Shown: positions 44,283 to 46,716 of the stretch, piece after piece
Layout: each line of letters opens with the position of its first letter
Position numbering within the stretch: position 1 is the first letter of the stretch
Source of the DNA: Escherichia coli
GTDB lineage: Bacteria; Pseudomonadota; Gammaproteobacteria; Enterobacterales; Enterobacteriaceae
DNA: 64,000 nt
NCBI RefSeq assembly: GCF_045037415.1
Contig: NZ_CP173438.1
Strand: one strand, 5' to 3'
Made by a program: the position numbers and the translations under genes
Notes under the pieces: generated by a model
What the model saw: only the letters and a program-made list of their open reading frames with translations
What the model was told of the DNA's origin: nothing
The model's database searches: none

Positions 44283-44706
44283 ATCCCCTCCAGAAATATG
44301 TGACTTATTCTTTACGCTGGCAGTATAACGGGAAAGGCCTGCTAATACGTGATGGCATCACATTTAAGCATGGCAAATGTCTGAAAAATGAGCGAATAAT
44401 CGCGTTATACTCCCTCTTGCTGATAAGCCTGCAAAAACAACAAAATCAAATAATTAGCATGATAAATTATTTTTTATTACGCCTAAAGGATTAAATCTTT
44501 CGCTTGCACTACACTGTCAATCAGACAAATGACTATATGGGGCAACCCGCTGTTGCCCTAAATCAAATTTACTGGATTTATTTATCTGGCGAATGATTTG
44601 CCTTCGTTTTTAAAATAGCCGCGCATTATTTCCGTCGTCACTTTTTTACGACGACCCTATAAAACGACCATATTTTTCACAGGGTCAATTTTTAATTGAG
44701 GTGGAT

Positions 44707-45402
44707 ATGTTCAGAAAATTAGCAGCTGAATGTTTTGGTACTTTCTGGCTTGTTTTTGGCGGCTGTGGTAGTGCCGTACTGGCCGCAGGCTTCCCGGAAT
44801 TAGGCATTGGTTTTGCCGGCGTGGCGTTGGCGTTCGGTCTGACCGTTCTGACAATGGCCTTTGCTGTTGGTCATATTTCTGGTGGTCATTTTAACCCGGC
44901 GGTCACTATTGGTTTATGGGCTGGCGGACGTTTCCCGGCAAAAGAAGTCGTTGGCTACGTAATTGCCCAGGTTGTCGGCGGTATTGTTGCGGCGGCGCTG
45001 CTGTATTTAATTGCCAGTGGTAAAACGGGTTTTGACGCGGCAGCCAGCGGTTTTGCTTCTAACGGTTATGGCGAGCATTCACCAGGCGGTTATTCCATGC
45101 TTTCCGCGCTGGTAGTTGAACTGGTATTGAGTGCAGGTTTCCTGCTGGTGATCCACGGCGCAACTGACAAATTCGCTCCTGCTGGTTTTGCGCCAATTGC
45201 CATTGGTCTGGCCTTAACCCTGATTCACTTAATCAGTATTCCGGTGACTAACACTTCCGTTAACCCGGCGCGCAGTACTGCGGTTGCTATCTTCCAGGGC
45301 GGCTGGGCATTAAAACAACTGTGGTTCTTCTGGGTGGTGCCAATTGTCGGCGGTATTATCGGTGGTCTGATTTACCGGACTCTACTGGAAAAGCGTAATT
45401 AA
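44707..45402 (+). CDS. aqpZ: aquaporin Z
   Basis: [27 protein letters not shown]..., two NPA motifs (HFNPAV, VNPAR). Confidence 0.97.
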
Positions 45403-45410
45403 TTAACGCA

Positions 45411-45441
45411 GAAGGCCTGGCGCAATGTCAGGCCTTTTTTT
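45411..45441 (+). terminator. aqpZ rho-independent terminator
   Basis: GAAGGCCTGGCGCAATGTCAGGCCTTTTTTT. Confidence 0.65.
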
Positions 45442-45489
45442 AAGATGTTGTTATATGTTGATTCATCATCTTGTTGCGCTCCTTTCATG

Positions 45490-45665
45490 AGCTAAGCCAC
45501 ATATTGCCACTGGCGCAAGGAGCGTGCAGGGGGCGGCCAATCGCCGCCGCCCCCTGCACCCCCGGGCTCTGGCGAACAAAATCGCCGCTGCGCGGTGCCC
45601 TCGACTTATCCCTTACGGCTACCGGGTCGGCGATTTTGACGCCACCAACACCGGTGCGGTTTGTA
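45490..45665. other. GC-rich, highly structured intergenic element (nested perfect hairpins)
   Basis: 14-bp perfect stem GTGCAGGGGGCGGC/GCCGCCCCCTGCAC and 10-bp stem AAAATCGCCG/CGGCGATTTT in an otherwise AT-rich intergenic region. Confidence 0.5.
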
Positions 45666-45816
45666 ATTAAAGCGCAAGAATATCTTTAAATGAAAATGAA
45701 TACCCTACCGATCCTTATGCATAACATTTCCTTTTAATTGCAACTTTACTCGTCCTTCCGCTTTCAGTAGTGTGTCATCGCGCATTTCGAATCTTCTTTG
45801 CAAGGACTGGGTTTTC

Positions 45817-46716
45817 ATGTTTTCTGGGCTGTTAATCATTCTGGTTCCCCTGATTGTGGGTTACCTCATTCCGCTTCGCCAAAAAGCTGCATTAAGAGTT
45901 ATTAATCAGCTCTTAAGCTGGATGGTTTACCTTATTCTCTTTTTTATGGGTATCAGTCTGGCGTTTCTCGATAACCTCGCCAGTAACTTGTTGGCAATTC
46001 TGCATTATTCTGCCGTCAGTACTACCGTTATTTTACTGTGTAATATTGCCGCCCTGATGTGGCTGGAGCGCGGCCTGCCATGGAGCAACCACCATCAGCA
46101 AGAAAAACTCCCGTCGCGTATTGCGATGGCGCTGGAGTCGCTAAAACTGTGCGGCGTAGTAGTGATTGGTTTTGCCATTGGTCTGAGTGGACTGGCTTTC
46201 TTACAACACGCGACCGAAGCCAGTGAATACACCTTAATTCTGCTGCTTTTCCTCGTCGGTATTCAGTTGCGCAATAATGGCATGACCTTAAAGCAGATTG
46301 TCCTTAATCGCCGGGGAATGATTGTCGCCGTGGTGGTGGTTGCCAGTTCATTAATTGGTGGTTTAATTAACGCCTTTATTCTTGATCTTCCCATCAATAC
46401 CGCGCTGGCAATGGCCTCCGGTTTCGGCTGGTATTCTCTTTCCGGTATTTTATTGACCGAATCTTTTGGTCCGGTAATCGGGAGCGCGGCGTTTTTTAAT
46501 GATCTGGCCCGTGAGCTGATTGCTATTATGTTAATCCCTGGGCTGATTCGCCGTAGCCGCTCTACTGCACTGGGCTTATGCGGTGCGACGTCGATGGATT
46601 TCACCCTGCCCGTTCTTCAACGTACAGGCGGGCTGGATATGGTCCCGGCGGCGATTGTTCACGGTTTTATTCTTAGTCTGTTAGTGCCGATTCTCATCGC
46701 CTTTTTCTCTGCATAA
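45817..46716 (+). CDS. lysO: lysine exporter LysO
   Basis: MFSGLLIILVPLIVGYLIPLRQK...; polytopic membrane protein, 299 aa from this start. Confidence 0.9.
   Translation: MFSGLLIILVPLIVGYLIPLRQKAALRVINQLLSWMVYLILFFMGISLAFLDNLASNLLAILHYSAVSTTVILLCNIAALMWLERGLPWSNHHQQEKLPSRIAMALESLKLCGVVVIGFAIGLSGLAFLQHATEASEYTLILLLFLVGIQLRNNGMTLKQIVLNRRGMIVAVVVVASSLIGGLINAFILDLPINTALAMASGFGWYSLSGILLTESFGPVIGSAAFFNDLARELIAIMLIPGLIRRSRSTALGLCGATSMDFTLPVLQRTGGLDMVPAAIVHGFILSLLVPILIAFFSA

Follow-up and report, generated by a model that had tools for sequence, protein, structure and literature searches.

The window analysed here is a stretch of 64,000 nucleotides (64 kb) of Escherichia coli DNA. It carries, in this order, ybjD on the minus strand and aqpZ (44701-45402), lysO (ATG at 45817) and hcp on the plus strand. 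The spacer between aqpZ and lysO contains a GC island, as a preliminary description of positions 45490-45665 had stated: G+C is 0.66-0.72 over 45500-45650, against 0.34-0.46 in the flanking spacer DNA. The described segment lies beyond the aqpZ terminator and 152-327 bp upstream of the lysO ATG, also as claimed. Its span picked out the right element, but the true unit is slightly larger: 45473-45659 by the published boundaries of the repeat TRIP1a, growing to about 45461-45685 when the flank common to TRIP1c is included. The features of the spacer are the following.

45412 to 45441, plus strand: intrinsic terminator of aqpZ, an 8-bp stem (45412-45419 / 45429-45436; AAGGCCTG / CAGGCCTT) with a 9-nt loop, then seven T
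45473 to 45659, minus strand (inferred RNA sense): TRIP1a repeat of 187 bp, corresponding to the 266-bp K-12 element with an internal deletion
45524 to 45537 and 45546 to 45559: perfect 14-bp stem, GTGCAGGGGGCGGC / GCCGCCCCCTGCAC, with 8 nt separating the arms
45577 to 45587 and 45628 to 45638: second stem of 11 bp, CAAAATCGCCG / CGGCGATTTTG, with 40 nt separating the arms
45627 to 45630, no strand: deletion junction, a single TCGG where K-12 has TCGG, 75 further bases and a second TCGG (columns 225-303 of alignment A1)
45730 to 45780, plus strand: lysO promoter region and mapped start (about 45780), outside the repeat

Both GC stems are present where the preliminary description put them. The longer one is indeed 14 bp and perfect; the second, given there as 10 bp, has a computed length of 11 bp. 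The aqpZ terminator, which a consensus terminator scan overlooked because of its 9-nt loop, is outside the repeat and ends the aqpZ transcript about 31 bp ahead of it. The segment 45490-45665 folds to -90.0 kcal/mol on the plus strand (z -4.98) and to -92.9 kcal/mol on the minus strand (z -3.73), and on either strand none of 200 dinucleotide shuffles was as good.

The element is an already known one: TRIP1a is an established intergenic repeat of E. coli. TRIP1 was described by Rudd 1999 and surveyed by Li et al. 2024 (PMC10888264), and in these two papers the copies are named TRIP1a (aqpZ-ybjE/lysO), TRIP1b (putP-ycdN/efeU), TRIP1c (yohI/dusC-yohG/mdtQ), TRIP1d and TRIP1e. According to the same survey, E. 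coli has up to five fixed TRIP1 loci, one per type, the repeats are 146-273 bp long with a G+C content of 62-65% and very stable predicted RNA folds, and their function is given as unknown. TRIP1a was placed 70 bp beyond the aqpZ stop, 31 bp beyond the apparent aqpZ terminator and about 158 bp before the lysO (ybjE) start (Li et al. 2024, PMC10888264). The window shows this arrangement, with aqpZ ending at 45402, the element at 45473-45659 and the lysO ATG at 45817. The window copy differs from K-12 TRIP1a by a few substitutions and a single gap of 79 bp (alignment A1, with K-12, Nissle 1917 and S10EC), and the window sequence is found with 100% identity in many E. coli genomes. In K-12 itself TRIP1a occupies about 915016-915281 of NC_000913.3, where the proposed RNA sense is that of the + strand, and TRIP1c lies downstream of yohP. 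An nhmmer search with the family profile detected one copy in the 64-kb window (E 1.3e-44), from which profile positions 50-124 are absent.

BLAST searches with the segment found the element in 5,425 of 5,426 complete E. coli genomes, at a median of 3 places per genome (range 1 to 7, maximum 7). The same repeat occurs at the unrelated loci putP-efeU, dusC-yohP, alx-sstT and copA-ybaP, the first two being the sites of TRIP1b and TRIP1c. With several related copies at other fixed loci, a high G+C content, stable hairpins and a length of 187 bp (inside the range of 146-273 bp), the window copy resembles the published repeats TRIP1a-e in locus, sequence and composition. It differs from them in being 187 bp and not 266 bp long, and its 79-bp deletion is not the one of 125 bp by which TRIP1b is defined. 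Uniqueness of the element is refuted by its match to a known repetitive intergenic family, a condition that the preliminary description itself had named.

The aqpZ-lysO spacer measures 493-494 bp in K-12 and Nissle 1917 and 414 bp in the window and S10EC, and this difference consists entirely of the single 79-bp gap, which has TCGG at both edges in K-12. It can be stated with high confidence that 45473-45659 is a TRIP1a allele in which a deletion between two TCGG microhomologies removed 79 bases from the interior. The presumed mechanism is replication slippage, which classically occurs where strong hairpins are bordered by short direct repeats. Two evenly spaced samples of 60 complete E. coli genomes each were used to follow the alleles. 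The deletion allele was present in 6 of 60 evenly sampled genomes, all six 100% identical, and a flank query was matched at an identity of at least 99% by 546 genomes; roughly 10% of complete E. coli genomes carry this allele. The full-length K-12-type allele was found in roughly 60-70% of the sampled genomes and other alleles in about a quarter. In O157:H7 the TRIP1 copy is inverted within the same aqpZ-lysO spacer, so that its proposed RNA sense runs with aqpZ, about 50 nt beyond the aqpZ stop. A query joining both flanks found no precise empty site; alternative alleles with inverted TRIP1 were seen instead.

The internal loss also happened elsewhere in the species. TRIP1b is a separate internal deletion of 125 bp between two CTGC repeats (own reading of alignment A2), and strain CFE299 has a third distinct one. 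The 79 bases missing from the window copy held helices P1b-P2 and both hairpins with a GGA loop (alignment A1), and this GGA module was lost at least three times in E. coli (window allele, TRIP1b, CFE299). Such repeated loss argues that the module is dispensable.

For the function of the segment the preliminary description had offered three options, a small RNA, a leader or attenuator of lysO, and the remnant of a miniature mobile element. As a cis-acting leader the element would be part of the lysO transcript, with hairpins that adjust read-through or translation to lysine. In favour of this, it has extensive structure and precedes lysO on the same side, and a genomic-SELEX study guessed a ybjE promoter (TTGACG-19-TGTAAT) with its -35 inside the right end of TRIP1a (45636-45641); however, that promoter is a sequence guess within a bound fragment and not a mapped start. 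In supplementary file 2 of Kim et al. 2012 (PMC3415461), the lysO/ybjE start is mapped to 914118 (NC_000913.2) with a 5' UTR of 38 nt, and the 51-nt sequence printed with it is identical to window positions 45730-45780. By this mapping the lysO transcript starts at about 45780, some 120 nt downstream of the end of the element, which excludes the element from the leader. The intrinsic-terminator scan found no hairpin followed by a T run in the element, and Rfam gave no match to a riboswitch or leader family. The occurrence of the same element at the four unrelated loci and its inversion in the O157:H7 spacer likewise speak against a leader, as does a wobble asymmetry favouring the opposite strand, described below. 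A leader or attenuator is very improbable. A literature search on the lysO promoter and ArgP returned nothing useful.

An independent plus-strand small-RNA gene, expressed between aqpZ and lysO, is if anything less credible still. The plus strand folds well (z -4.98), and the element is co-oriented with both neighbours, so that read-through of the aqpZ terminator could cover it; that terminator is strong, however, and lies just upstream. Scans of the window, of K-12 and of a Citrobacter pair found no sigma-70 or intrinsic-terminator consensus flanking the element above shuffle expectation. An Rfam scan of 44500-46500 at E values up to 10 gave matches at chance level only (miRNA and snoRNA models; best E = 1.4). 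The plus sense is also the one made mismatched by the wobble pattern of the family, and the conserved core is missing from the window copy. Counting against any transcript of the element, in either sense, the RefSeq annotation of K-12 has nothing at TRIP1a, and in the portion of the Kim et al. 2012 data consulted no mapped start lies near the element among the E. coli and K. pneumoniae starts, which are mainly gene-associated and make this a weak negative. A protein-coding reading was rejected: open reading frames of 72 (plus strand), 48 and 37 amino acids run across the element, and the indels of 79 and 125 bp seen in the family, neither of them divisible by three, break any frame.

The family extends well beyond E. 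coli. Among chromosomes contained in a plasmid collection, BLAST found copies in K. pneumoniae, K. aerogenes and Citrobacter, with 13 places in one K. pneumoniae chromosome. When 100,044 species genomes were scanned with an exact pattern, 76 stretches matched, almost all of them from Enterobacteriaceae (Citrobacter, Klebsiella, Enterobacter, Kluyvera, Leclercia, Silvania, Pseudocitrobacter and several species of Escherichia). Ten helices were set out from the K-12 sequence and covariation was counted in alignment A3, which holds 73 distinct copies; the scan pattern contained the loop of hairpin A, so the invariance of that loop in A3 is imposed by the search. The helices retained in the window copy are given below.

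45477 to 45524, minus strand: helix P7, CGCTCCTT (45477-45484) pairing with AAGGAGCG (45517-45524)
45524 to 45559, minus strand: helix P6, the 14-bp GC stem, with an 8-nt loop (CAATCGCC on the plus strand)
45577 to 45638, minus strand: helix P1, the second stem, CAAAATCG (45577-45584) pairing with CGATTTTG (45631-45638)
45585 to 45595, minus strand: helix P5, the small hairpin CCGC-TGC-GCGG

The two stems of the preliminary description are therefore helices P6 and P1 of the family fold. In its intact form, of about 265-275 bp, TRIP1 would be under constraint as a folded RNA whose sense is opposite to that of aqpZ and lysO. Two hairpins with GGA loops (CAUGGAUG and ACAGGGAUGU) would be surrounded by the stem P2 and, outside it, by the long stem P1, and this core would be followed by the small hairpin P5, the GC hairpin P6 of 13-14 bp and then the stem P7. 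Between the arms of P1, which closes the core, lie 119 nt in intact copies, compared with 40 nt in the window copy. The latter retains P1, P5, P6 and P7 and is without P2 and both GGA hairpins.

In alignment A3 91.6% of cells are paired, and both sides change in 37 of 70 pairs (571 cells, a kind of count that common descent of the copies inflates). The covariation score reaches 0.317, compared with 0.142 in shuffles, and none of 500 shuffles attained it; with the partner column shifted by 1-3 columns as a control, 8-13 pairs changed on both sides and pairing was 37-44%. P1 is paired in 99% of cells, with both sides changing in 5 of 8 pairs (for example GC 38 / CG 33), and P2 is paired in 99.5-100% of cells. 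P3 alternates between CG 54-59 and GC 14-19, and between GC 52 and AU 21. In P5 the family forms are CCGC/GCGG, TTGC/GCAA and CCAC/GTGG (both sides change in 3 of 4 pairs), and in P7 both sides change in 3 of 8 pairs (for example UA 36 / CG 35). The P6 stem differs by subfamily with pairing kept (GCAGGGGGCGGC, GCCAGGGTGGC and TGTAAAGGGCG; in RNA letters GCAGGGGGCGGC, GCCAGGGUGGC and UGUAAAGGGCG), and both sides change in 7 of 13 pairs, a number lowered by misalignment of inner P6 between subfamilies.

Compensatory change alone fits both an RNA and a DNA cruciform, and in palindromic DNA it might equally be kept by a DNA-binding or cruciform function. What separates the two is the asymmetry of wobble pairs. 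In helices P1-P5, read in the minus-strand sense, 21 pair positions (75 cells) show G-U and 5 positions (5 cells) show A-C, which is G-U on the opposite strand; an own binomial count on positions gives p of about 0.0025 (two-sided), the events being not fully independent. This points to an RNA read from the minus strand of the window. RNAalifold gives -71.1 in the minus-strand sense against -57.4 in the other, and the K-12 TRIP1a fold is -147.9 kcal/mol (z -6.0) in the minus-strand sense against -131.7 (z -5.0) in the other. These patterns make RNA-level constraint on the minus strand of the TRIP1 family probable. What is new is that the family spans the Enterobacteriaceae, that its helices covary strongly and that a strand is assigned; the TRIP1 literature found covers E. 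coli only and contains no strand, covariation, TwoAYGGAY or CsrA link.

The serious rival is that TRIP1 acts only as DNA, as a selfish or structural repeat (cruciform, protein-binding site or recombination site) whose hairpins are maintained through recognition of the DNA or through gene conversion; on this view the window copy would simply be a partly deleted repeat. The one effect of TRIP1 that has been shown, homologous recombination with inversion between copies, is of this kind. The variable copy number (from 1 to 7 places in E. coli to 13 in one K. pneumoniae chromosome), the recurrent internal deletions and the scans that found no promoter, terminator or mapped start are also in line with it. 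So is the placing of copies near gene 3' ends, as in REP elements. Relative to the proposed RNA sense, 80 copies were compared with their neighbours: 16 are convergent, 2 divergent, 15 tandem in the same sense and 15 tandem antisense, and for the remaining copies the neighbour could not be called. Copies thus cluster near gene 3' ends like other repeats, without orientation preference, and with random orientation to neighbour genes expression would need an unseen internal promoter or read-through. The main weakness of a purely DNA-level role is the strand asymmetry together with the conserved single-stranded loops. A duplex or cruciform treats both strands alike and does not predict 21 G-U against 5 A-C positions, nor the advantage of 14-16 kcal/mol for one sense, and GGA motifs in single-stranded loops are conserved while the stems around them are replaced wholesale. 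Terminal inverted repeats and a MITE-type target duplication are lacking too. A DNA-only role is accordingly the less probable reading, and constraint on a minus-strand RNA is preferred for the intact family members, which would be transcribed in that sense; the conserved core is gone from the window copy.

Other identities were also considered. The description of the segment as the possible remnant of a miniature mobile element comes nearest among the three options, in that the window copy is a degraded member of a repeat family; MITE hallmarks are absent from it. The ends GTTGCGCTCC... and ...ACCGGTGCGG are not mutual inverted copies, the flanks at three loci have no direct duplication, and the sole near-terminal inverted pair (85% over 13 nt) is not common to other subfamilies. 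The statement that the element is not a canonical REP holds: the REP-derived Rfam model (naRNA4) has no match in the window region, a REP palindrome is not present, and the unit is about 190-270 bp long with many helices. BoxC is a G/C-tract triplex (PIT) motif of 50-56 bp, and the element does not match it; RSA and ERIC repeats were likewise set aside as identities. REP/BIME and BoxC elements are similar to TRIP1 in being GC-rich, hairpin-forming repeats outside genes and near 3' ends. They differ in size (about 35-56 bp, against about 270 bp with at least seven helices in TRIP1), and TRIP1 has neither the REP palindrome nor the G/C triplex blocks of BoxC and is present in far fewer copies per genome. 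In Enterobacter and Silvania, TRIP1 copies abut BoxC-like G-tract motifs. A BLAST search of TRIP1c against 50,697 phage records gave no match, and a phage origin was rejected; the matches in the plasmid collection were chromosomal fragments or misfiled chromosomes.

The core of the intact fold resembles a known RNA class. TwoAYGGAY RNAs have two terminal loops with AYGGAY and often a very long P1; they come from gut metagenomes, Clostridia and Gammaproteobacteria and were rated as probably RNA and not cis-regulatory (Weinberg et al. 2010). The Rfam model of this class (RF01731) matches four TRIP1 family copies, all in the minus-strand sense, with 30.2, 30.6, 33.1 and 37.8 bits (E 0.92, 0.74, 0.053 and 0.018), every score being under the gathering cut-off of 43 bits. 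The three matches of 30-33 bits align P1, the inner stem P2 and both hairpins in register. The 37.8-bit match is a copy of a different subfamily, located beside a pattern-bearing copy in one locus (L083), and aligns P2 and the two hairpins only. The window copy gave no TwoAYGGAY match at E values up to 10; it has kept P1 alone of the class features, both loop hairpins being deleted.

Intact TRIP1 and TwoAYGGAY have in common, on the same strand, a long P1 with an inner stem and a neighbouring pair of hairpins of the form A-Y/R-GGA-Y, and both occur in Gammaproteobacteria in several copies per genome. In the part of the Weinberg et al. 2010 alignment that was consulted, Psychromonas members are present in multiple copies, and one of them has, on our own reading, a long perfect hairpin after the core that would match P6. 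Six accessions from E. coli, Klebsiella, Enterobacter and Citrobacter were looked for in that same part of the alignment and do not occur there. On the other side, TRIP1 scores only 30-38 bits, is GC-rich and has the extra helices P5-P7, and its hairpin B in E. coli (ACAGGGAUGU or ACAAGGACGU) is ARGGAY rather than AYGGAY. Hairpin A of intact copies has the loop CAUGGAUG. Hairpin B has AUGGAU in Leclercia, Silvania and Kluyvera, and AGGGAU or AAGGAC in E. coli and Klebsiella. A profile search added 17 copies from two other subfamilies, outside the loop-pattern selection. Their stem sequences are unrelated, and GGA is present in 34 of 34 loops (GCAGGGAUGC, GCAUGGACGC, CCAUGGAUGG and GACAGGACGUC). 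Some copies, belonging to four genera, carry an optional insert of about 85 nt that contributes a third GGA hairpin, whose loop is AAGGAU or UGGGAU. A full-text search found no paper on TRIP1 among those mentioning TwoAYGGAY, and the TRIP1 paper was not among them.

The SELEX consensus of CsrA sites, RUACARGGAUGU, likewise has GGA in a hairpin loop. In K-12 TRIP1a, hairpin B (UUACAGGGAUGU) agrees with 11 of its 12 positions and hairpin A with 9. Each intact TRIP1a or TRIP1c contains two CsrA-like sites (11/12 or 10/12, plus 9/12), whereas the window copy has no site scoring at least 9/12 on either strand. The two GGA sites of intact TRIP1 are about 28 nt apart, a spacing within the range that one CsrA dimer can bridge. 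TRIP1 is like the CsrB/CsrC-type RNAs in these consensus-like GGA loops. CsrC and CsrB carry roughly 9-22 CsrA sites, in contrast to two candidate sites in TRIP1 (three with the optional insert), and TRIP1, unlike a single regulated gene, is a repeat dispersed over the genome. CsrA binding by TwoAYGGAY RNAs was proposed independently by the authors of RMfam; a literature search found no paper tying CsrA CLIP-seq to yohP.

If intact copies are transcribed, their most likely function would be the binding of one CsrA dimer by the two GGA loops: the repeat would act either as a small decoy or as a module that makes any transcript running through it responsive to CsrA. From the loop sequences, CsrA binding by intact TRIP1 copies is plausible, at somewhat below an even chance. 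The wider proposal, in which TRIP1 would be an enterobacterial, GC-rich branch of the TwoAYGGAY class whose transcribed intact copies capture a CsrA dimer via two, sometimes three hairpins, is more speculative and rather unlikely to hold in full. The window copy itself, having lost P2 and both GGA hairpins, is most likely an inert, decayed remnant between the aqpZ terminator and the lysO promoter, its function presumably gone with them.

The GC island of the window should accordingly be annotated neither as a lysO leader nor as a new small RNA. TRIP1 copies are documented substrates for homologous recombination that inverts chromosome segments on the megabase scale (Li et al. 2024, PMC10888264), which makes the state of each allele, its orientation and internal deletions, relevant to studies of genome structure. 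After 25 years without an assigned function, TRIP1 gains a strand, a covarying multi-helix RNA fold across genera and a testable hypothesis of CsrA-type hairpins. RNA-seq and CLIP analyses often leave out reads that derive from repeats, which could explain why such RNAs were overlooked even in K-12. If the hypothesis is true, K-12 has an unrecognised dispersed set of CsrA-binding RNA modules, and the natural deletions (the 79-bp loss in the window, TRIP1b and CFE299) would be loss-of-function alleles of them.

Inverted copies of TRIP1, the GC-rich intergenic repeat family, occur in the aqpZ-lysO spacers of two other strains. Both the O157:H7 spacer (L088 374-833) and the spacer of strain CFE299 (L087 374-696) carry a copy inverted relative to the orientation in the window. 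The sequences directly bordering this copy are unrelated, and neither spacer has the aqpZ terminator hairpin of the K-12 type. Because of this inversion, the inferred RNA sense there continues from aqpZ, about 50 nt past its stop. The CFE299 copy has a separate internal deletion of about 120 profile positions; both GGA hairpins are gone there too.

At the window copy (TRIP1a), two further stretches stand out:
45539-45557 and 45580-45598: direct repeat D1
45444-45523, minus strand: 3' arm of helix P7, which on the inferred RNA sense reads AAGGAG, and a short reading frame after it

P6, the 14-bp GC hairpin, has a loop (AATCGCC on the plus strand) that duplicates the 5' part of the arm of P1, the helix closing the core. 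In the RNA sense this loop reads GGCGAUU and could replace the 3' arm of P1 as the partner of the 5' arm. Across the TRIP1 family, six stacked pairs of this kind are at least 90% canonical, and the variation in them consists of wobbles only. The pairing represents a possible alternative fold or pseudoknot.

Nine bases after AAGGAG, an AUGAUG starts a 9-codon frame (MMNQHITTS) that runs out of the window TRIP1a. The copy at dusC-yohP (TRIP1c) has an identical start and a longer frame, and the copy at putP-efeU (TRIP1b) has CUGCUG at this position. The combination of AAGGAG and the 9-codon frame in the window copy is probably due to chance.

In Silvania, Citrobacter, Enterobacter and Escherichia whittamii, some copies have an optional insert, about 85 nt long, at one shared site between P1b and P5:
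L047 (columns 166-241 of A3, the alignment of 73 copies)
L041 1223-1550
L070 5972-6165
L063
L072

Its hairpins include CAAAAUUGC-CGGGA-GCAAUUUUG, and it supplies a third GGA-loop hairpin, either GCCCC-AAGGAU-GGGGC or GUCCC-UGGGAU-GGGAC; these two versions differ by compensatory changes.

A third, more divergent subfamily was found within a few hundred bases of a pattern-bearing copy (one detected by the hairpin-A-loop-containing scan) in Kluyvera, Pseudocitrobacter, Leclercia and one further Enterobacteriaceae genome:
L083 1424-1658
L069 5674-5899
L021 2222-2437
L037 9195-9412
L074 6783-7005

Its hairpins are AGUCCGCC-AUGGAU-GGCGGACU and GGCGAA..GACAGGACGUC..UUCGCC. The top score of this analysis for the TwoAYGGAY RNA motif (Rfam RF01731), 37.8 bits against a cut-off of 43, came from a copy of this subfamily.

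Citrobacter carries back-to-back pairs, as in L009, where the two members belong to different subfamilies:
1068-1377, RNA sense minus
1440-1720, RNA sense plus

The same arrangement is present in L078, L019, L027, L077, L015 and L033. The inferred 5' ends of the paired Citrobacter copies point to a shared AT-rich spacer of roughly 60 nt, which looks like a divergent promoter region; a sigma-70 consensus scan of this spacer gave no match.

Other repeats also neighbour the family. A REP-like sequence at L065 594-672 adjoins a TRIP1-family copy; this sequence scored 37.7 bits against Rfam naRNA4, below the cut-off of 59.5. Separately, a G-tract motif, GAGGGTTAGGGTGAGGGG, adjoins many Enterobacter, Silvania and Leclercia copies, approximately 10-30 nt past the P7 end of the element (L018, L025, L028, L030, L042, L075, L086). 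This motif resembles BoxC (PIT) sequences. Its placement suggests that the TRIP1 family and G-tract/BoxC-like repeats cluster or travel together.
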